Source: Dehalococcoidia bacterium (GTDB lineage Bacteria; Chloroflexota; Dehalococcoidia; Lucifugimonadales; UBA1123). Taken from it: DNA of 64,000 nt. The DNA lies in NCBI GenBank assembly GCA_034420955.1, contig DAOUKV010000024.1, forward strand, positions 83,443 to 147,442, read 5' to 3'. A program made the translations under genes and the position numbers. The notes beneath the pieces are model-generated. The model was not told the origin of the DNA. It did no database searches and saw only the letters and a program-made list of their open reading frames with translations. Position 1 is the first letter of the stretch; every line of letters begins with the position of its first letter. Shown piece by piece: positions 6,482-57,366 of this stretch.

Positions 6482-6557
6482 GGCAACGTAGCTCAGTGGT
6501 TAGAGCGGGCGCTTCATAAGCGCTAGGTCGCTGGTTCGAACCCAGCCGTTGCCACCA
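6482..6557 (+). tRNA. tRNA with CAU anticodon, elongator type (tRNA-Met or lysidine-modified tRNA-Ile2)
   Basis: Hand-folded cloverleaf: acceptor GGCAACG/CGTTGCC, anticodon loop TTCATAA, T-loop TTCGAAC, encoded CCA. A G1-C72 pair argues against an initiator tRNA. Confidence 0.85.
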
Positions 6558-6623
6558 ATGGTCACGGCGCGGGGCTTGGTTCCCGGCTGGGCGCGCGTCG
6601 CAGACGAGCGCGCTGGCGGACCG

Positions 6624-6699
6624 GGGCGATTAGCTCAGTGGTTAGAGCGCTCGCCTCACACGCGAGAGGTCCGAGGTTCAAATCCTCGATCGCCCACCA
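6624..6699 (+). tRNA. tRNA-Val (CAC)
   Basis: Acceptor GGGCGAT/ATCGCCC, anticodon loop CTCACAC, T-loop TTCAAAT, encoded CCA. Confidence 0.85.
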
Positions 6700-6762
6700 G
6701 CGGCGCGCTTGGCGTTGAACGCGGCGTCGGCGTCGGGTATAATCGTAGAGCATTCGAATAGC

Positions 6763-6848
6763 GCCGAAGTGGCGGAACGGTAGACGCGCTACGTTCAGGA
6801 CGTAGTATCCTTACGGGTGTGTGGGTTCGACTCCCTCCTTCGGCACCA
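6763..6848 (+). tRNA. tRNA-Leu (CAG), class II with a long variable arm
   Basis: Acceptor GCCGAAG/CTTCGGC, anticodon loop TTCAGGA, long variable arm, T-loop TTCGACT, encoded CCA. Length is 86 nt. Confidence 0.85.
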
Positions 6849-6901
6849 TTCCAGTTCAACCCTCCGGCGATCGGCGTATGAGCGCCGAACGCCGTTAGCG
6901 C

Positions 6902-6977
6902 GCGCTTGTAGCTCAGCGGATAGAGCGCAGCCCTGCGGAGGCTGAGGCCGTGGGTTCGAGTCCCACCAAGCGCGCCA
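6902..6977 (+). tRNA. tRNA-Arg with GCG anticodon
   Basis: Acceptor GCGCTTG/CAAGCGC, D-arm GCTCAGCGGATAGAGC (Arg-like), anticodon stem CAGCC/GGCTG with loop CTGCGGA, encoded CCA. Confidence 0.8.
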
Positions 6978-7033
6978 CCTCTCCCCTGCCAGTCGAGTCG
7001 GTTGCCAAACAGGGTCGGCTAGGCTTGATACGT

Positions 7034-7110
7034 GGGCGGTTAGCTCAGCTGGTTAGAGCGTCTGTCTTACACACAGAAGGTCACAGGTTCGAGTCCTGTA
7101 TCGCCCACCA
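7034..7110 (+). tRNA. tRNA-Val (TAC)
   Basis: Acceptor GGGCGGT/ATCGCCC, anticodon stem TCTGT/ACAGA with loop CTTACAC, encoded CCA. Confidence 0.85.
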
Positions 7111-7354: not shown

Positions 7355-10300
7355 ATGGGCGCCAATCGTTTGCGCGAACCCTGGCGAGGAGTAAAGTCCA
7401 CTGTGAATTCCAAAAGTATACGCCGTGGCATTGTTCTTTTGGTAGCCCTCTCGGTGGCTATTCCCGGGATAGTGGTGGGAACGACGCTGTCGCAGCGTTC
7501 CGAATCACCCGACGAGCCCAACCCCGAGCTAACGTTGGAACAGACACAGGACTCGATCTCAAGTTCCGTCCCCCTCAAGCCCGACGCTCCGACGCTCACG
7601 CCGGGACACTTGAAGCTGGACGTATCGTGGAGCGCGCCCGGCAGTGGCGATACTGCGATTACAGGCTACAAGCTGCAGTACAAAGAAACCTCCGCAGCCG
7701 ACCAGATCGGGACCGGCAGCGCCCCTTCCACCGGCTGGGTGACGAGCGTCCAAAGCGGCGAGGCGACTAGAGCAACTATCGCAGGGCTGACTAGAGACAC
7801 GAGCTACGACGTGCGGGTACTAGCCACCAACATCGATGGCGACGGCCCCTGGTCCGACGAGGCGAGCGGCGCGCCCACCGAGTTGCGTATCGGGTTCACA
7901 TCCGCCTCCGCCACCTACGCTGAGACCGACAGCGCAGGCGCGCAGGCGGTCCGGTTCCATACGGTGAGCGGGACGATTCCACAGTCGGGAATCGACATTG
8001 ACTGGCAGATAGGCAGCGGCTCCACCGCGACAGGAACCGACGGAACAACTTGCTCGGCGGGGGATGACTTCCGGGCGCCCACGTCAGGCTCCGTCCGTCT
8101 CACTCAGTCGAGCGGCGCCCTACAACTGACGATCTGCGGCGATAACGTCGTCGAACCAAGCGAGACCATCGAGATAGAAATCGTGCCGAGGGCAGGGCGC
8201 TATAGCGGCGACGCCACCATGACGATCACCATCGAGGACGACGACGCTCCAGAGGGAGTGACGGTGACGCCCGGCGACGAGTCGTTGGAGGTCACGTGGA
8301 GCGAGCCAATAGTCCAGGGGTCGCTGGCGTTCTACGAGGTGCAGTACAAGGAGACTGGCGCCGAAGACTGGCCGACCGACCATACCGACGAAACCGACAC
8401 ATCCATCACCATAGACGACCTTGCCAACGACGTTAGCTACGACGTGCGGGTGCGCGCCGTGGCCACCGGCGTTACCGGGGCATGGTCGTCGCCGCAGACC
8501 GGTACTCCGCGGCAGGGCCTGAACCTGTCTTCGAACGCCAACCTGAGCGGCCTGACGGCGAGCGGCGGCTCCAGCGCGGACGGCGAGTTCACGGAGCTGA
8601 CGCTGACACCGGCCGCCTTCGACAAGGCGACGACGAGCTATACGGCGTCGGTAGATAACTCCATCACTCACGTGAAGCTGACGCCTACGGTGGAGGACAC
8701 CGGCAACGCCACGGTGAAGGTCGGCAAGGGGACAAGCCTGACGTCGGTGACCAGCGGTTCGTCCAGTTCCGCGATCGCGCTCGACGTGGCCGTCAACGCC
8801 ATCAAGGTCGAGGTGACAGCGCAGGATGCCACCAAGAAGACCTACACTGTGACCGTGACGCGGGCCCAGCAGGAGATCCAGACCCCCACAGCGCTGAACC
8901 TGGGTGTGGACTACGCTAAGCTCGACGAGGGCATGACCGCGACCGTCATCGCCATACTGAACCACCTGGCGGTCGAGGGCGGCTTCGAGGCGTCCCTTAC
9001 GTTCGCAGGCAGCGCCGACTTGAAAGGCGAGGTCAACGAGGGCGAAGAAGATTACACGGCGAGTAGTTCTACCATCGTCATTGCCGAGGGCAATGCAACG
9101 GCCACTGTGGCTCTCACCATCGCCGACGACATGGTGGACGAGGACGACGAGACCATCATCCTCAACGCCAATCCCCCAAGCGGTGTCTCCGTAAACGGCG
9201 TTACCATCACCATTAGCGACAACGACACGGCGGGAGCGACCTTGAACACGGGAAGCCTCAGCGTGGCCGAGAACGCGACCAACAACTATACCGTGGTCCT
9301 AGACACCAAGCCTGTCCACGACGTGATAGTTACACCGTCCAGCTCGTCCCCGGCGACGGCGACGGTGAGCGACGCGCTAACGTTCACGCCGGACAACTGG
9401 AGCGTGCCGCAGCCGGTAACGGTGACGGGGGTGGCCGCAGGCGCCACGTCCGTAACTCACTCTGCCGCAAGCTCGGACGCGAAGTACAACGGCAGTTCCG
9501 TCAGCATCGACTCCGTGGCGGTGACGACGGTTTCGAAACCGACCAACCTGAAGGTGACGCCCCAGGCATACAACGGCGGCCCCCTGTTGTTGATCGGGTT
9601 CGACGCGACCGCAGACGGGCACTCGGTTTTGACACAGGTGAAACAGGACACCGGCAGTTGGCCGGCGCCCTCGCTGGATCCTTCCCTGCCCTCCGACGCG
9701 AGCATAGACACCACCGGACTCAGCCGGGCGACAGCGCGGCGAGTAGTCGGCCTGGTGAAAGGGACCACCTACGACGTGCGAGCGCACGTAATAGGCGGAA
9801 ATCCAATCGCCGTCATCAGCGGCTCTTCATCCGACGCCGCGCAGGCCACCACCTGGACCGTGCCGGACGCGCCCACGGGAGTGAGCGCCGCGGCCGGCAA
9901 CACACAGATCGCGTTGACGTGGACCGAGCCTGCCAACAAGGGCGGCGCGGGCGCGTCCATCACCGGCTACGACGTGCAGTACAAGGCGAGTACCGACACC
10001 GAATGGACCGACTTCACCCACACCGACACTGCGACTAGCGCGATCATCGGCAGCCTGAACAACGGCACGACCTACGATTTGAGGGTGCGCGCCAGGAACG
10101 GCATCGACCCCGGAAGCGCATGGGCCACGCCCGAGGACGACGATCCCGCCTTGAGAACGCCGAGGTTGTCCGGCGACGCCACCCTCAGCTCTCTGGAGCT
10201 GACCGACGATGACGACAACGTCATATCCCTCGACGAGAGCTTCGCCTCCGACGTCTATGCCTACACAGTTACAGTTCCGGGTACGGTGGACTCGGTGAAA

Positions 10301-11269
10301 GTAACGTTCGTTCCCAATCACAGCGGCGCGACCGTAGAAGTGAACGGCACAGCCGTCGCCAGCGGCGCGACCAGCGACGCCATTGCCCTAGACTACGGCA
10401 ACAACGACATCACCGTGGTGGTAACGGCGGAGGACAGCGAAACGCAGACTTACACAATCACGGTGGCGCGGGTCATCGAGGCGAACTTCGAGCAGTCACG
10501 GTACGACGTAACTGAGGGCGTGTACAGCCACGCCATCGTAACCATCACCCTATCTACCGGGGCTACAGCGACCATCGCGGACCTTGCGGCGAGCGAGGGC
10601 CTGACGGTGACCGTGAGCTCCGGCAGCGCAAAACATAAGGAAGACTGGACGGGCGAAAAGAGCATATCGGTCTACTTCGATCAGGGGGACACGAGCGCCA
10701 GAATTTCCGTACGCATTGTCGACGACGATACGGCGGAGGGATCGGAGTTCTTCACCCTATCCCTGTCGGTCGGAGCGGGGGCGGCGACGGCCGGACTGGC
10801 CATCGGCCAAACCGGAACCGCGGATGTTTACATTGAGGACGACGAGGCGTACAGGCCACAGCTACAACGGTCTTTGGGCAGAAGCGACAGCGGAACGGAA
10901 TCCGACTCCAACCCGAACAACGGCGGGAACAGCGGGAATAACAACGGGAACGGCGGGAACGGCGGGAACGGCGGAACCTGCGCCACGTACACGGTCACTG
11001 TGCTCGGAGGGTATGAAGCTTCCTATACTAGCGAGTTCGTCTACCGCGCCTCGGGCGGCACCGCGCAGCGTCTCGGCATAGTGAACACTGACGTTGGCCA
11101 AAGCCGCACGGTCCCAAACAGTGGGTCAATCCAGTTCGGCATCTACGTGTGGGCCCGAGACTATCATCGATGGAACCCGCGCATCAGCGGCAACGATTAC
11201 TGGTTCGAAGACGAAATGGACAACGACTTCAACGACGCCGGATTGCGAGTTACCGGAACTGGTTGCTGA
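7355..11269 (+). CDS. Large secreted/surface protein with FN3, Calx-beta and cadherin-like beta-sandwich repeats, an Asn/Gly run and a DUF4114-like C-terminal domain
   Basis: 1304-aa ORF with an N-terminal hydrophobic anchor (IVLLVALSVAIPGIVVG). There are 4 FN3-like units (e.g. ITGYKLQYKE...YDVRVLA), 2 cadherin-like units (ANLSGLTASGG...TYTVTVTR) and Calx-beta-like units (IADDMVDEDDETIIL, IVDDDTAEGSEFFTLSL). The tail reads ...WFEDEMDNDFNDAGLRV. An alternative start is the in-frame GTG at 7403, after AGGAG. Confidence 0.8.
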   Translation: MGANRLREPWRGVKSTVNSKSIRRGIVLLVALSVAIPGIVVGTTLSQRSESPDEPNPELTLEQTQDSISSSVPLKPDAPTLTPGHLKLDVSWSAPGSGDTAITGYKLQYKETSAADQIGTGSAPSTGWVTSVQSGEATRATIAGLTRDTSYDVRVLATNIDGDGPWSDEASGAPTELRIGFTSASATYAETDSAGAQAVRFHTVSGTIPQSGIDIDWQIGSGSTATGTDGTTCSAGDDFRAPTSGSVRLTQSSGALQLTICGDNVVEPSETIEIEIVPRAGRYSGDATMTITIEDDDAPEGVTVTPGDESLEVTWSEPIVQGSLAFYEVQYKETGAEDWPTDHTDETDTSITIDDLANDVSYDVRVRAVATGVTGAWSSPQTGTPRQGLNLSSNANLSGLTASGGSSADGEFTELTLTPAAFDKATTSYTASVDNSITHVKLTPTVEDTGNATVKVGKGTSLTSVTSGSSSSAIALDVAVNAIKVEVTAQDATKKTYTVTVTRAQQEIQTPTALNLGVDYAKLDEGMTATVIAILNHLAVEGGFEASLTFAGSADLKGEVNEGEEDYTASSSTIVIAEGNATATVALTIADDMVDEDDETIILNANPPSGVSVNGVTITISDNDTAGATLNTGSLSVAENATNNYTVVLDTKPVHDVIVTPSSSSPATATVSDALTFTPDNWSVPQPVTVTGVAAGATSVTHSAASSDAKYNGSSVSIDSVAVTTVSKPTNLKVTPQAYNGGPLLLIGFDATADGHSVLTQVKQDTGSWPAPSLDPSLPSDASIDTTGLSRATARRVVGLVKGTTYDVRAHVIGGNPIAVISGSSSDAAQATTWTVPDAPTGVSAAAGNTQIALTWTEPANKGGAGASITGYDVQYKASTDTEWTDFTHTDTATSAIIGSLNNGTTYDLRVRARNGIDPGSAWATPEDDDPALRTPRLSGDATLSSLELTDDDDNVISLDESFASDVYAYTVTVPGTVDSVKVTFVPNHSGATVEVNGTAVASGATSDAIALDYGNNDITVVVTAEDSETQTYTITVARVIEANFEQSRYDVTEGVYSHAIVTITLSTGATATIADLAASEGLTVTVSSGSAKHKEDWTGEKSISVYFDQGDTSARISVRIVDDDTAEGSEFFTLSLSVGAGAATAGLAIGQTGTADVYIEDDEAYRPQLQRSLGRSDSGTESDSNPNNGGNSGNNNGNGGNGGNGGTCATYTVTVLGGYEASYTSEFVYRASGGTAQRLGIVNTDVGQSRTVPNSGSIQFGIYVWARDYHRWNPRISGNDYWFEDEMDNDFNDAGLRVTGTGC

Positions 11270-11301: not shown

Positions 11302-11895
11302 CTACCCCGCCGCCTGTCGCCGCGCCCTCGTCTGTTCGCGGTGGCGGATGTAGAGGGTCGCCTCGTCCACAGCCATGCGGCCTATAGGGCCGGAGGCGTA
11401 CAGGGAGTTGAAGACGACGCCCCCGCGTATGATGATGAACTCCATCGGCTGTAGGTAGCGTCCGTGAGCCGCGTCTTCCGTCCACCAGGCGCCGAGCGCG
11501 GCGACGTCTTCCTCTGTTACGCCGTATGCTACGGGGAAGGATATGCCGGCCTTGCTCGCCATCTCAGCGGCGTCTTCCTTGCTCTCGGTGGTGGCGGCGA
11601 TCGCCGTAATCCCCATCTTGTCCAAACGTTCCATTCTGTCTTCGTAGCTGGCTAACTGCCGCACGCAGTACGGTCACCACTTGCCCCGGTAGAAGAGGAG
11701 CGCGACGTAGCGGTTCGGAATCTCGCGCGGCAGCTCTAACGAGCCTCCGTCTATGAGGTTGAGGTTGAGCTTTGGAAAGCGGTCTCCCTGTTGGAGTTTG
11801 TCGGACATGAGGACTCTCCGAGTGGTCTGCTCTGTCGGTCTGGCATCGTTGCGTTCAGGATACTGCAACGCTAGGGCAATTTCCACCGCACCCAT
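11302..11895 (-). CDS. Peroxiredoxin-like (AhpC/TSA, redoxin-fold) protein with an in-frame TGA at the first Cys of CxxC; candidate selenoprotein (UxxC)
   Basis: ORFs 11674..11895 and 11302..11664 are in the same frame and contiguous. Read through, the junction is ...ALLFYRGKW-TGA-PYCVRQLASYE..., the conserved FYRGxWCPxC redox motif with TGA (11674-11676) replacing the Cys codon. Confidence 0.6.
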
Positions 11896-11972: not shown

Positions 11973-14546
11973 TTGTCGCTGAAGTTGTTGAGCGCCCTAA
12001 TCGTTGCGCTGGCGGTCGCCGTAGGCGTTGTCGCGCAGGCATATGTGAATAATGTTGAAGCTCAGGGGGCGGGCGGCATGACGCTCACCGTCCGCAACGT
12101 TACGGGCGGCAACCCTTTGACGCCGCCCATCGCCATAGTCCACGACGGCAGCGTCATCACCGGCGCGTCCTCGCTGGACGGCCTGGCGGGCTTGGAAGAG
12201 CTGGCTGAGGCCGGGGCGCAGGAGCCACTGGCAACCACGCTTGCCGGACTGGCCGGCGTATCCGAAGTCGTCAAGATCGAGACGGCTCCCATTCCGGGAG
12301 GCGAGGAGGCGACCGGCACGGTGACAGCGATGCCGGGCGACTACGTTACCGTTGTCGCCATGCTCGCCTGCACCAACGACGCGATTGCCGTCGGAACGGC
12401 AATCATGTCTGAAAGTGGAGCAATGTCTTCTGGCCGAGTGTACGACGCCGGCACTGAAGTGAATTCCGAGACCGCCGCCTCCGTGCCGTGCCTGGGAGGC
12501 GCGGGCGTGTCGGACGCTAGCGGAGAAGGTTCACTAATGCTGCACGACGGCATCATGGGCGGCGCCGACCTGGACGCGACGACCCACGGCTGGGACGTGG
12601 CTGCGATGCAGTTGTTCGTCCACGCTGCAGGGACAGACGCTCCTGCGGCCGCCAACCCGACGCTGACGCTGGAAAACCTAACGGCCGGGCAGCCAATCAC
12701 CCCGCCCGTCGTCGTGGTGCACGATCCGAATGTGGCCCCGCTGACGTACGAATCTCCGGACGATCTCGACGGCATTGACGACCTCTCAGAAGGCGGCGTG
12801 ACAGGCGACCTGATAGCGACGCTGGGCGGCAGGCCCGGCGTGTTGTCCGCATTCGTTCTTAACACGGGCGGACCCATCCTGCCCGGGCAAGAGTACAACA
12901 CCGTCATTGCCGGAGTGGACGGCGCGGCGGTGTCCGTCGCCGGAATGTTCGCCTGCACAAACGATGCCTACATCCTGGCTACGGCGATGATCGAGCTGGA
13001 CGATGACGGCAAGCCAACCACTTTGGAAGCTATGGCGTCCGTCATAGACTCCGGCTCAGAATCGAACGATGAGACTGCGGATACGGTGCCCTGTCTGGGT
13101 GGCGAGGCCCTCTCCAGCGGGCTGGGCGAAGGCAGTCGGTCCGAGCACCCAGGAATCCAAGGAGGCGCTGACCTAGACTCGGAGACACACGGCTGGACCG
13201 CTGAAACCACCGCCAAGCTGACGCTGTGCAACCTCCGAGCCGACCAGCCGGAGTGGACCAAGACGCTGGTTCAGCAAGCGGTGGACCGCTACAAAAAGAC
13301 CGGTCTCGAGGAAACCACGGCCTACTACAACACCGATGAGAGCCGCGACGGTCAGTGGTACGTGTTCATCGCCGACCGGAGCTCCATCCTGCGCTCGCAT
13401 GTAACGCACGTAGGATGGCTCCTGGACCGCGTGCTGGGTCCGGACGGATATCCGGCCGGCAAGATGGTCAATGCCGTGGCCAATGAAGACGGCAGCTGGG
13501 TTAGCTACACTTACGTGAACCCGGCGTCCGGCGAAGTCGAGAGGAAGCATTCTTGGGCCATCCGGCATAGCGGGATTCTGTTCGGTTCGGGTTGGTACGA
13601 GGCGGGAGCTCCGAAGTCGGATCCCGCTGCCTACACCAAAGAGTTAGTCCAGCGGGCCACGGACCTGTACGACGTTTTGGGAATAGAAGATACGGTCGAA
13701 TACTACAACATGCGGAAGAGCGTGGACGGGCAGTGGTACGTCGCTATCGCCGATGAGAACAACGTTACCATAGCTTATCCGACCCACCCACACCGGATCG
13801 GAATGTCCTTGGAAGACAGCGTCACCTTCAATAGCTATCCGGTCGGCGCGGCCATAGTCGCCGTGGCTGATGAGGACGGAGGCTGGACCAGCTACACTCA
13901 CACGAATCCGGCGACCGGCGTGGCCGAGCTCAAGCATGCTTGGGCCATAAGGCATGACGGGCTGCTCTTCGGTTCGGGCTGGTACGAGCCAAGCCCTTCG
14001 AAGGACTCCCCCGAGGCTTACACCAAGGCGTTCGTGGAGCAGGCCGTCGAGCTGCACAAGGCCGTTGGCGACGAGAGGACCATCGCGTACTACAACACTC
14101 CCGAGAGCGTGGACGGCGAGTGGTACGTGTTCGTTGTTCAGGGGGATGCTATCGTCGCTCATGCAACCGTTCCCGAGAACATAGGCCAGAGCCTCCTGGG
14201 TCCGCTTGGGACCGACTCGACCGGCGAGGAGTTCGGCTCGGCCATCATAGACGCGCCGGAAGGCGGAGCGTGGGTAGATTACACCTACCTCAACCCGGCC
14301 TTAGGCGGGGAAGAGATAAAGCACACCTGGGTGGTGAGGAGCGGCGATCTGGTCTTCGGGTCCGGTTGGTACGAGCCGGTTCCGGCGCCCACGCCGACTC
14401 CGGAGCCTGCACCGGAGCCAGTGGATGAGATGCCTGAGACGGGCGACTTCTCGCTGACGGCGGGCTGGGCGCTTGCGCTTGCCCTGGCGGGCGCGCTCAT
14501 CGCCCTGGGCGGCGCGGTCACGATCGCTCGCCAGCGCGGACGCTAG
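11973..14546 (+). CDS. Cell-surface protein: signal peptide, 2 spondin_N-like domains, 3 single-Cache-like repeats, C-terminal sortase-type sorting signal
   Basis: 857 aa with a TTG start after GAGGAGG. Two units are of the type LT(V/L)xN(V/L)TxGxP(L/I)TPP(I/V)xxVHD...ACTNDA. Three repeats of about 125 aa are of the type YTKxxVxxAVxLY...YYN...DGQWYV...W(V/T)SYT(Y/H)xNPAxG...KHxWAIRHxG(I/L)LFGSGWYE. The C-terminus is MPETG plus a hydrophobic helix plus RQRGR. Confidence 0.75.
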   Translation: MSLKLLSALIVALAVAVGVVAQAYVNNVEAQGAGGMTLTVRNVTGGNPLTPPIAIVHDGSVITGASSLDGLAGLEELAEAGAQEPLATTLAGLAGVSEVVKIETAPIPGGEEATGTVTAMPGDYVTVVAMLACTNDAIAVGTAIMSESGAMSSGRVYDAGTEVNSETAASVPCLGGAGVSDASGEGSLMLHDGIMGGADLDATTHGWDVAAMQLFVHAAGTDAPAAANPTLTLENLTAGQPITPPVVVVHDPNVAPLTYESPDDLDGIDDLSEGGVTGDLIATLGGRPGVLSAFVLNTGGPILPGQEYNTVIAGVDGAAVSVAGMFACTNDAYILATAMIELDDDGKPTTLEAMASVIDSGSESNDETADTVPCLGGEALSSGLGEGSRSEHPGIQGGADLDSETHGWTAETTAKLTLCNLRADQPEWTKTLVQQAVDRYKKTGLEETTAYYNTDESRDGQWYVFIADRSSILRSHVTHVGWLLDRVLGPDGYPAGKMVNAVANEDGSWVSYTYVNPASGEVERKHSWAIRHSGILFGSGWYEAGAPKSDPAAYTKELVQRATDLYDVLGIEDTVEYYNMRKSVDGQWYVAIADENNVTIAYPTHPHRIGMSLEDSVTFNSYPVGAAIVAVADEDGGWTSYTHTNPATGVAELKHAWAIRHDGLLFGSGWYEPSPSKDSPEAYTKAFVEQAVELHKAVGDERTIAYYNTPESVDGEWYVFVVQGDAIVAHATVPENIGQSLLGPLGTDSTGEEFGSAIIDAPEGGAWVDYTYLNPALGGEEIKHTWVVRSGDLVFGSGWYEPVPAPTPTPEPAPEPVDEMPETGDFSLTAGWALALALAGALIALGGAVTIARQRGR

Positions 14547-41656: not shown

Positions 41657-41732
41657 GGGGATATAGCTCAATTGGGAGAGCGCGGCGTTCGCAATGCCGA
41701 GGTTGGGGGTTCGAGCCCCCCTATCTCCACCA
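41657..41732 (+). tRNA. tRNA-Ala (CGC)
   Basis: Acceptor GGGGATA/TATCTCC contains the G3:U70 alanine identity pair. Anticodon loop TTCGCAA, T-loop TTCGAGC, encoded CCA. Confidence 0.85.
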
Positions 41733-55126: not shown

Positions 55127-55246
55127 TGGCTCTTATCCAGAGTGGCGGAGGGACCGGCCCCTTGATGCCCGGCAACCGGTCGAGCGCGCGGCGCGCGGCA
55201 AAGGTGCCAATTCCGGCGAGCGCTTGGACGTTCGAGAGATGAGAGT
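55127..55246 (+). promoter_or_regulatory. SAM-I (S-box) riboswitch aptamer
   Basis: CTCTTATCCAGAGTGGCGGAGGGACCGGCCCCTTGATGCCCGGCAACC...GGTGCCAATTCC...AGAGATGAGAG matches the conserved SAM-I core blocks in order. A candidate promoter is TTGACA (55071-55076), 18-nt spacer, TAGCAT (55095-55100). Confidence 0.9.
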
Positions 55247-55415: not shown

Positions 55416-56462
55416 TTGAGTACGACAGCGACAGAGATAACCCCAGTAATCTGGGGCGGCGATTCGGTTCGCATCCTCGACCAGCGGCGTCTGCCGAGCG
55501 AGGAGACGTGGCTGGATACGTCGGACTACCGAGACGTGATAGAGGCTATTCGCAACATGTCCGTTCGCGGGGCGCCGGCTATCGGCATAGCGGGCGCTTA
55601 TGGGCTGGCCCTGGCGGCGATGGAACTGGCGCAGACCGCAAACGGCAATTTTACGGACAGGCTGCACGCGGCGGCCCGCGAGATTCGCAGCGCGAGGCCT
55701 ACGGGCGCGAACCTGGGATGGGCCATAGACCGGCTCCTGTCGGCGTGCGTCTCGGCGCAGTCGGTCGAGGATGTGGTATCGGACATCGCGTCCGAGGCGG
55801 CGAGTATCCATGCGGAGGACGTGGAAAGCTGCCGCGCGATCGGGCGCGCCGGAGCGGCGCTTATTCCGTGGGGCAGCAGCGTTCTCACTCACTGCAATAC
55901 AGGCGCGCTGGCGACGGGCGGCTACGGCACCGCTCTCGGCGTCGTCCGAGCCGCATGGGCGGACGGGCGGCTCGAAGGGGTTTACGCCAGCGAGACGCGC
56001 CCGCTGCTGCAAGGCGCGCGGCTGACGGCGTGGGAGCTCGAACGCGAGGGCATCAGCGCGAGGCTGGTGGTTGACTCGGCTACGGGCGCGCTGATGCGAC
56101 AGGGCATGGTGCAGGCGGTCATCGTAGGCGCCGACCGCATCGCCCGCAACGGCGACGTGGCGAACAAGATTGGCACGTACAACCTGGCGGTCTTGGCGAA
56201 GGAGAACGGCATACCGTTCTACGTGGCCGCGCCGACGTCCACCTTCGATCCGGCGACGGCTACGGGAGACGAGATCGAGATCGAGGAGCGGGCCAGTTCT
56301 GAGACGCTCGGCTTTGGCGGCGTCAGGACGGCGCCGGAAGGAATCGAGGCATACAACCCGGCGTTCGACGTTACCCCAAACCGGTACGTTACGGGCATCG
56401 TGAGCGAGATGGGCGTCGCGCGGGCGCCATACCGCAGGAGCTTGAGGGAGCATCTTGGCTGA
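55416..56462 (+). CDS. mtnA: S-methyl-5-thioribose-1-phosphate isomerase
   Basis: 348 aa with ILDQRRLP, VRGAPAIG and GADRIARNGDVANKIGTY. TTG start. Confidence 0.85.
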   Translation: MSTTATEITPVIWGGDSVRILDQRRLPSEETWLDTSDYRDVIEAIRNMSVRGAPAIGIAGAYGLALAAMELAQTANGNFTDRLHAAAREIRSARPTGANLGWAIDRLLSACVSAQSVEDVVSDIASEAASIHAEDVESCRAIGRAGAALIPWGSSVLTHCNTGALATGGYGTALGVVRAAWADGRLEGVYASETRPLLQGARLTAWELEREGISARLVVDSATGALMRQGMVQAVIVGADRIARNGDVANKIGTYNLAVLAKENGIPFYVAAPTSTFDPATATGDEIEIEERASSETLGFGGVRTAPEGIEAYNPAFDVTPNRYVTGIVSEMGVARAPYRRSLREHLG

Positions 56463-57366
56463 AGCATCCATAGCCTTCATCGGCGGGTCGGGACTCTACG
56501 ATATGGAAGGCCTGACCGGGGCGCGTGAAGTCGAGCTCGACACGCCGTTCGGCAAGCCGTCGGACGCGATCACCATCGGACGGCTGGAAGGTGCTCCGGT
56601 CGCGTTTCTGCCAAGACACGGGCGAGGGCATCGCATCATGCCCACCGAGATTCCGGCACGGGCGAACATCTACGCGCTGAAGACGCTGGGCGTGGAGCGC
56701 GTCGTCTCTATCAGCGCGGTGGGCAGCCTGAAGGAAGAGATGAAGCCGCTGGACCTGGTCGTGCCGGACCAGATCATCGACAGGACGCGCGAGCGTCCGG
56801 CGACGTTCTTTGGAGAAGGGCTGGTGGCGCACGTCGGGTTCGCGGACCCGTTCTGCCCTACCCTGCGCCGGGTTGCCGTCGAAAACGCGGCGAGCCTGAC
56901 CGACGTTCATGACGGCGGCGCTTACGTGGTGATGGAAGGTCCGCAGTTTTCGACGCGCGCCGAGTCGGAGATGCACAGGGGTTGGGACGCGAGCGTGATC
57001 GGCATGACGGCGCTGCCGGAGGCGAAGCTGGCGCGCGAAGCGGAGATGTGCTACGCGACGCTCGCGTTCGTTACCGACTACGACGTTTGGCACGTATCAG
57101 AGGACGATGTTTCGGTTGAGCTGGTCGTCCGCAACCTGATGCGAAACGTCAGCGTCGGGCAGACAATCGCGCGTCGGATGGCGGCGTGGGCCGCCAGCGC
57201 GCGCGCTGACGATTTCGGCGATAGGGGCGATTGCGGTTGCGGCAGGGCGTTGGAAAACGCGATAATTACGAGTCCGGATTCGATTCCGGCGGCGACGCGG
57301 GAACGGCTCGCGCCGCTGGTGGACAAGTACTTGGGAGCAAACAATGCCAACACAGGTACCGGGTGA
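56455..57366 (+). CDS. mtnP: S-methyl-5'-thioadenosine phosphorylase
   Basis: IAFIGGSGLY...FLPRHG..H and MEGPQFST...GMT motifs. It overlaps the mtnA stop by 8 nt. Confidence 0.85.
   Translation: MAEASIAFIGGSGLYDMEGLTGAREVELDTPFGKPSDAITIGRLEGAPVAFLPRHGRGHRIMPTEIPARANIYALKTLGVERVVSISAVGSLKEEMKPLDLVVPDQIIDRTRERPATFFGEGLVAHVGFADPFCPTLRRVAVENAASLTDVHDGGAYVVMEGPQFSTRAESEMHRGWDASVIGMTALPEAKLAREAEMCYATLAFVTDYDVWHVSEDDVSVELVVRNLMRNVSVGQTIARRMAAWAASARADDFGDRGDCGCGRALENAIITSPDSIPAATRERLAPLVDKYLGANNANTGTG

Follow-up and report, generated by a model that had tools for sequence, protein, structure and literature searches.

In the window, as we term the whole stretch of 64,000 nucleotides of Dehalococcoidia DNA analysed here, two open reading frames (11674..11895 and 11302..11664) share a single frame on the minus strand. 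Direct reading and translation bear out the original prediction that the two are contiguous and that their sole interruption is a TGA at 11676..11674 (-), which lies within ...RYVALLFYRGKW*PYCVRQLASYEDR.... The frame and the stop codon stand as first described, whereas the start moves: alignment with homologs places it at the ATG 11808..11806 (MSDKLQQGD...) rather than at the ATG of the 73-aa ORF (11895). The coding sequence so delimited spans 11302..11808 (-) and comprises 168 codons, including a predicted selenocysteine (Sec) at position 45, with a TAG stop at 11304..11302; this extent is based on the translation, the Pfam match and an N-terminus of the form M-x-x-K-L-x-Q-G-D as in homologs. 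A Shine-Dalgarno-like GGAGAG, read from the sequence, is located at 11814..11819 (-), 5 nt upstream of the ATG. When the TGA is translated as a sense codon, the protein matches, over residues 6-133, the Pfam AhpC-TSA domain (PF00578) with 60.1 bits (E = 2.6e-16; cut-off 26) and Redoxin with 50.8 bits. The UGA codon (11674..11676, -) would occupy the first position of a U-P-Y-C redox motif; its equivalence to the first cysteine of W-C-P-Y-C, as claimed earlier, is upheld by the alignment of homologs, by a profile alignment with PDB sequences and by an AlphaFold2 model. Three codons further on, the TGC at 11665..11667 (-) encodes Cys48, the putative resolving partner of Sec45, which is invariant across the family.

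On either side of the gene, which stands by itself, is a very large plus-strand gene. The product of one of these (7355-11269, +) has 1304 aa and contains fn3, cadherin-like and Calx-beta repeats; that of the other (11973-14546, +) has 857 aa, in which faint dCache-like modules are repeated and a hydrophobic anchor lies at the C-terminus. Both are probably surface proteins. Neighbours vary among the relatives, in none of which was either flank found conserved beside the gene, and the genomic context thus offers no further functional clue. Elsewhere in the window, a SAM riboswitch (RF00162, 84.6 bits) at 55130-55245 (+) lies upstream of the ORFs 55416-56462 and 56455-57366 (+), which, from inspection by eye, we take to encode an MtnA-like protein (methylthioribose-1-phosphate isomerase) and an MTA phosphorylase-like protein, respectively; the riboswitch and the two ORFs resemble an ordinary operon for methionine salvage that is controlled by SAM. 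The window also contains a cluster of five tRNA genes at 6482-7110 (+), namely Met-CAT, Val-CAC, Leu-CAG, Arg-GCG and Val-TAC, and a lone tRNA-Ala (CGC) at 41657-41732 (+).

Examination of the predicted protein reveals a hydrophilic N-terminus (MSDKLQQGDRFPK), and MSDKLQQGDRFPKLNLNLIDGG is devoid of a hydrophobic segment, signal peptide or membrane anchor; given this hydrophilic N-terminus the product is predicted to be cytoplasmic. A profile of the family compared with the PDB recovered BCP peroxiredoxins, with 2cx3 at E = 2e-8, as well as ResA at 3e-7. In the alignment with 2cx3, C-P-Y-C falls over S-P-V-C, which would equate Cys48 with the peroxidatic cysteine and Sec45 with the Thr/Ser of the peroxiredoxin T/S-x-x-C. 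When compared with ResA, the same motif corresponds to the redox pair of W-C-x-x-C, and Sec takes the place of the N-terminal nucleophile. The AlphaFold2 model of a Cys homolog assumes a thioredoxin fold (pLDDT 85.6, pTM 0.81) in which residue 45 directly precedes the helix formed by residues 46-57, and Foldseek searches initiated with this model ranked BCP (3hjp, TM 0.73/0.81) and ResA (4nmu, 2f9s) about equally. The protein does not display the P-x-x-x-T/S-x-x-C signature of peroxiredoxins, the equivalent stretch being R41-G-K-W-U45-P-Y-C48, with Arg41 for Pro and Sec for Thr/Ser; an invariant arginine (R128) is placed like the catalytic Arg of peroxiredoxins. All NCBIfam equivalog models score far under their cut-offs (BCP PRK09437, 29.5 vs 140; PrxQ, 19.4 vs 260), and so do the ResA subfamily model (22.7 vs 170) and the SelL-related NF040769 (18.4 bits vs 120), the motif here being UxxC rather than UxxU. 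The subfamily bears a signature of its own, consisting of FYRGxW-U-PYC, HGxYxQP and YASGPIGR, and no NCBIfam model specific to the FYRGxW-U-PYC subfamily was found. The chemistry suggested by these sequence and fold comparisons is most likely that of a selenol/thiol redox couple.

Protein sequence searches recovered 15 full-length homologs with 49-58% identity, 14 of which display W-C-P-Y-C and one W-S-P-Y-C. About 50 public protein matches are only 92-120 aa long, restart past the TGA and cover two thirds of the query on its C-terminal side, and one public protein call stops at ...FYRGVW; such a pattern arises when a gene caller takes a Sec codon for a stop and resumes beyond it. A public call of 206 aa with a PF05942 domain annotation (P0065) contains at its C-terminal end the N-terminal 44 residues of a Prx-like homolog, up to ...FYRGVW, and probably reflects a gene call extended into the region upstream of a Sec gene. 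On a 3.99-Mb metagenomic contig, a homolog reads FYRGEW-TGA-PYCRRQL in one frame. In a scan of a collection with one genome per prokaryotic species, close orthologs (45-57% identity) were found in Dehalococcoidia/Chloroflexota MAGs only, with 22 copies at 21 Dehalococcoidia loci that have TGA at the position in question in 20 cases, TGT in one and TCA in one, the last being a tandem second copy. Metagenomes were scanned with patterns independent of the Sec/Cys position, and among the 103 family members assembled from genomes and metagenomes the codon is TGA in 97, Cys in four (TGT or TGC, in L008, L085, L088 and L119) and Ser in two. The original prediction had pointed to orthologs with Cys and with TGA as a check on the reading, and to random frameshifts or stops in orthologs as a sign against it: both codon types are present, and none of the 103 members contains a frameshift or an additional stop. 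More distant homologs from other phyla (26-39% identity), which were retrieved with a pattern that requires the Cys, all have CPYC.

Just downstream of the UGA lies a SECIS-like hairpin formed by nt 12-34 as counted from the U of UGA (11643..11665, -), with an apical loop AGUUA at nt 20-24 (11653..11657, -) in which G21 and U22 are the presumed contact of SelB. The stem drawn in the original prediction (C12-G34, G13-C33, G15-C30, C16-G29, G17-C27, G18-C26 and C19-G25, with the loop A20-A24) coincides with the minimum-free-energy (MFE) fold of both the 37- and the 60-nt segments, with A28 and U31 bulged in the window copy. When set against dinucleotide shuffles, the window hairpin folds no better than chance (z = -0.8 and +0.15); single-sequence thermodynamics was hence dropped as evidence for the hairpin and comparative data were used instead.

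Codon usage in 85 distinct Sec-form genes reveals that the codons +5 to +8 after the UGA (Arg-Gln-Leu-Ala), which spell CGGC-AGUUR-GCCG, are nearly frozen at synonymous sites, with CGG in 73/83, CAG in 84/84, UUR (UUA/UUG) in 82/83 and GCC in 74/83, whereas other equally conserved Arg, Leu and Ala codons of the gene use four to six synonyms, the Leu there being mostly CUN. Across 71 distinct sequences, 77% of the cells of the helix 12-19/25-32 are paired, as against 66% in column shuffles (none of 500 reaching the observed value) and a maximum of 41.5% on sliding the 3' partners; likewise, its covariation score of 0.27 compares with 0.11 in shuffles and is reached by none of 500. The changes include compensatory ones: the pair 15-29 is seen as G-C, C-G, U-A and U-G, the pair 14-30 assumes six pair types, and the apical pairs 17-27 and 18-26 each change from G-C to U-A, in separate sequences. 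The hairpin appears in the MFE fold (40 nt) of 48 of the 67 distinct Sec forms, three of these 48 being shifted by one base with an AGUU tetraloop, and 64 of the 67 segments have AGUUG or AGUUA as their loop. All four Cys forms lack the CGG-CAG-UUR-GCC codons, and the motif of the hairpin differs at one to three bases in the two Ser forms. Thus, frozen synonymous sites and compensatory changes substantiate the conserved stem-loop that had been anticipated past the TGA. Bacterial SECIS elements have, by consensus, an apical loop 16-37 nt after the UGA with a conserved G. The loop described here starts 16 nt after the UGA and contains the conserved G21-U22; as judged by this consensus and by the fdhF element of Escherichia coli, the hairpin is predicted to be a compact but regular bacterial SECIS, in keeping with the geometry originally proposed.

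The RNAalifold consensus for the same region is a different hairpin, formed by nt 8-12 with nt 18-22, whose formation excludes the hairpin 12-34. It has 96% of its cells paired, is the MFE fold in 15 of the 67 Sec forms and may compete with the SECIS fold. It displays no compensatory change, is not above shuffles and starts only 4 nt past the UGA, a position taken to be inside the ribosome during UGA decoding, so that it was rejected as a candidate and is unlikely to be the SECIS itself. A search of Rfam yielded no match at the gathering threshold in the window other than the tRNAs and the SAM riboswitch, and nothing meaningful around the TGA at E <= 10. L092 and L095 (TGA AGC TAC TGC CGT AGG CAG CTA GGT AGC), which represent a divergent clade, have U-S-Y-C and are without the CGGC-AGUUR-GCCG hairpin. 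Inspection by eye suggests that another one (A20-U31 ... U23-A28, loop AGGU) could take over its role, and the clade may be a case of SECIS turnover within the family. Tandem duplication of the Prx-like gene is frequent in relatives (L010, L144, L093, L094, L097, L123 and L126). In L010 (TGA copy at ~9572-9590, TCA copy at ~10109-10127) and L144, a Sec (TGA) copy adjoins a Ser (TCA) copy with altered hairpin codons, CAA in one and CUA-UCC in the other, and the other duplicated loci have two Sec copies each.

Neither the window nor ~1.6 Mb of related loci yielded a tblastn match to E. coli SelA, SelB or SelD at E <= 1e-3, and with ARAGORN both the window and 23 related loci proved devoid of tRNA-Sec, in agreement with the earlier statement that selA, selB, selC and selD are not among the genes of this window. 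In a database search with E. coli SelA, the best 120 matches listed were all enterobacterial. The ten bacteria richest in selenoprotein genes in BSepDB, which was built only from species with a Sec pathway, include two Dehalococcoidia MAGs that have 49 and 46 such genes (PMC13326102). The Prx-like gene is the only TGA-interrupted coding region found in the window, and in the flanks of the 21 Dehalococcoidia loci only the Prx-like family was found to be so interrupted. A scan for a TGA with an AGUUR-type hairpin through 1.57 Mb (both strands counted) returned 58 matches in the Prx-like family and three that are likely to be chance.

A break of this kind might be a nonsense mutation or an assembly error at the codon for the active-site Cys (TGC/TGT to TGA), which would leave a dead gene; a single base change suffices to convert TGC to TGA, gene callers do split the gene in two, and no Sec machinery is found within the window. 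However, the same codon is TGA in nearly all of the relatives, the Dehalococcoidia copies included, with frames that are otherwise intact. Further, Nei-Gojobori estimates over 293 Sec-form pairs gave a median dN/dS of 0.24 in the 42 codons that precede the TGA and of 0.30 in the part that follows, which means that purifying selection keeps both halves of the gene as protein in the same frame. In addition, an independent assembly (Logan SRR13587050) contains an identical downstream ORF and the same neighbouring genes. Taken together with the use of TGA as an ordinary stop by 16 of the 37 long non-overlapping ORFs in the window, these observations exclude a pseudogene or a sequencing error, and we consider a dead gene scarcely conceivable. 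Bacterial read-through of UGA as Trp or Cys is known to occur when selenium is scarce, and this precedent, along with the fact that Sec machinery has so far not been seen in the window or the related loci, would favor a living gene whose UGA is read as something other than Sec, be it by a near-cognate or suppressor tRNA inserting Trp or Cys or by a lineage-wide reassignment of UGA. The 16 ordinary TGA stops imply that UGA is not generally reassigned, and neither form of non-Sec reading sits well with a position-specific, covarying hairpin that has a GU loop at the distance of a SECIS and is lost in the Cys forms. Moreover, the UGA occupies the place of the redox nucleophile, at which Sec/Cys pairs are the norm (PMC2398784), and decoding of this UGA as an amino acid other than Sec is accordingly very improbable in our assessment.

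The in-frame conservation of the UGA, the presence of Cys orthologs, the coding constraint on both sides, the covarying hairpin and the fold are all observed, and together with the position of the UGA in the motif they lend support to the original proposal of a UxxC selenoprotein with a Cys-to-Sec replacement. We are hence highly confident that the UGA 11676..11674 encodes selenocysteine in the active site of a Prx-like redox enzyme. We infer that Sec insertion is SelB-dependent and that the host genome encodes the Sec machinery. In this mechanism the UGA 11676..11674 would be decoded rather than read as a stop: the hairpin of nt 12-34 within the coding sequence (loop AGUUA with G21-U22; codons Arg-Gln-Leu-Ala) would bind SelB with GTP and Sec-tRNA(Sec), and SelB would deliver Sec to the ribosome. 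The product, 168 residues long, would be a cytoplasmic peroxiredoxin-like thiol:disulfide oxidoreductase with a thioredoxin fold and with U45 of U45-P-Y-C48 as the nucleophile. From its place at the N-terminus of helix 1, Sec45 would attack the oxidised substrate, presumably a disulfide or sulfenic acid or possibly a peroxide, following which Cys48 would resolve the adduct to form a selenenylsulfide with Sec45, and a thioredoxin-type reductant would recycle the enzyme.

An alternative that is compatible with Sec decoding is that the enzyme is a true Sec peroxidase with a peroxiredoxin function instead of a thiol:disulfide oxidoreductase. The inclusion of BCP/PrxQ peroxiredoxins among the best matches, the alignment of Cys48 with the peroxidatic Cys and the placement of the invariant R128 would all agree with such an activity. 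Nevertheless, the departure from the peroxiredoxin signature at Arg41 and Sec45 and the low scores against the BCP/PrxQ equivalogs argue against it, and the W-C/U-x-x-C motif is that of ResA/TlpA-type oxidoreductases, with the ResA structures matching about as well. We therefore regard a peroxidase as possible but doubtful, and favor the thiol:disulfide oxidoreductase described above.

The selenoprotein type is already known, and the present gene is an unannotated or mis-annotated addition to it, which does not change what is known of Sec decoding or of Prx-like proteins. In public gene calls, this gene and its relatives are split into a stub of 44-73 aa and a fragment of 92-120 aa, and the complete redox enzyme is hidden; a corrected annotation would add one selenoprotein to the organism of the window and ~100 to its relatives. 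It also supports published reports of a heavy reliance on selenium in Dehalococcoidia, and provides for this lineage an example of a covariation-supported SECIS that could improve SECIS and selenoprotein predictors. Two minor peculiarities can be read from the alignments, namely the apparent near fixation of Sec in a Dehalococcoidia-centred subfamily and the compact, covariation-supported putative SECIS. More tentatively, these genes might constitute an uncurated Dehalococcoidia-centred Prx-like subfamily, in which Sec has almost fully replaced Cys (~94% of copies), the unusually compact, minimum-spacing SECIS is spelled entirely by Arg-Gln-Leu-Ala with an AGUUR loop, and a Sec copy is repeatedly paired in tandem with a Ser (TCA) copy whose hairpin is decaying; this idea draws on the lack of a specific NCBIfam model and on every public Sec-form protein call seen being a fragment that lacks the remainder.

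The SECIS of E. coli fdhF is the archetypal bacterial Sec insertion element, with the loop G23-U24. The hairpin described here shares with it the location within the coding sequence directly 3' of the UGA, the conserved loop G-U and a GC-rich upper stem of 4-5 bp. It differs from the fdhF element in that the loop is 2 nt nearer to the UGA and consists of 5 nt (AGUUR as against GGUC), and in that the 5' arm does not have a conserved bulged U; the contact with SelB is presumed here.

At the protein level, the similarity to BCP/PrxQ (PDB 2cx3, 3hjp) extends from the fold (Foldseek TM 0.73/0.81) and the correspondence of Cys48 to the peroxidatic Cys to a similar size and the lack of a signal peptide, but R-G-x-W-U-P-Y-C replaces P-x-x-x-T/S-x-x-C and the equivalog scores are, as noted, far under the cut-offs. 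With ResA/TlpA/CcmG (PDB 1st9, 4nmu), the protein has in common a W-C-x-x-C-type motif at the N-terminus of helix 1 and a comparable fold, with TM scores of 0.64-0.67 by query length and 0.79-0.81 by target length. Unlike these proteins, the gene product has neither a membrane anchor nor a signal sequence and is hence predicted to be cytoplasmic rather than extracytoplasmic. SelL and the NCBIfam 'SelL-related redox protein' family likewise have Sec in the redox motif of a Prx-like thioredoxin fold, but the motif is UxxU in SelL as against UxxC here, and the score to NF040769 is low.

The closest correspondence is to a long-known class, named 'Prx-like 1, pfam00578, UxxC' in the Sargasso/GOS selenoproteomes, with 225 selenoprotein sequences and 2,740 Cys homologs in the GOS data (PMC2398784). 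The family was recorded in 28 organisms in a 2016 survey (PMC5029168), and in a 2026 review 'Prx-like thiol:disulfide oxidoreductase, PF00578, UxxC/UxxU' figures among the selenoproteins 'predicted with high confidence' (PMC13188914). Based on its domain, the UxxC motif, the Sec/Cys pairs among homologs and the SECIS, the gene appears to fit this known class of Prx-like thiol:disulfide oxidoreductases (PF00578, UxxC), whose reference sequences include WP_010940744.1. It shares with the class the AhpC/TSA domain, a Sec that opens UxxC and is matched by Cys in homologs, a SECIS hairpin of bacterial type within the ORF just past the UGA and relatives from metagenome contigs. What sets it apart is that its subfamily has its own signature, is concentrated in Dehalococcoidia in the retrieved data and has Sec in ~94% of its copies.
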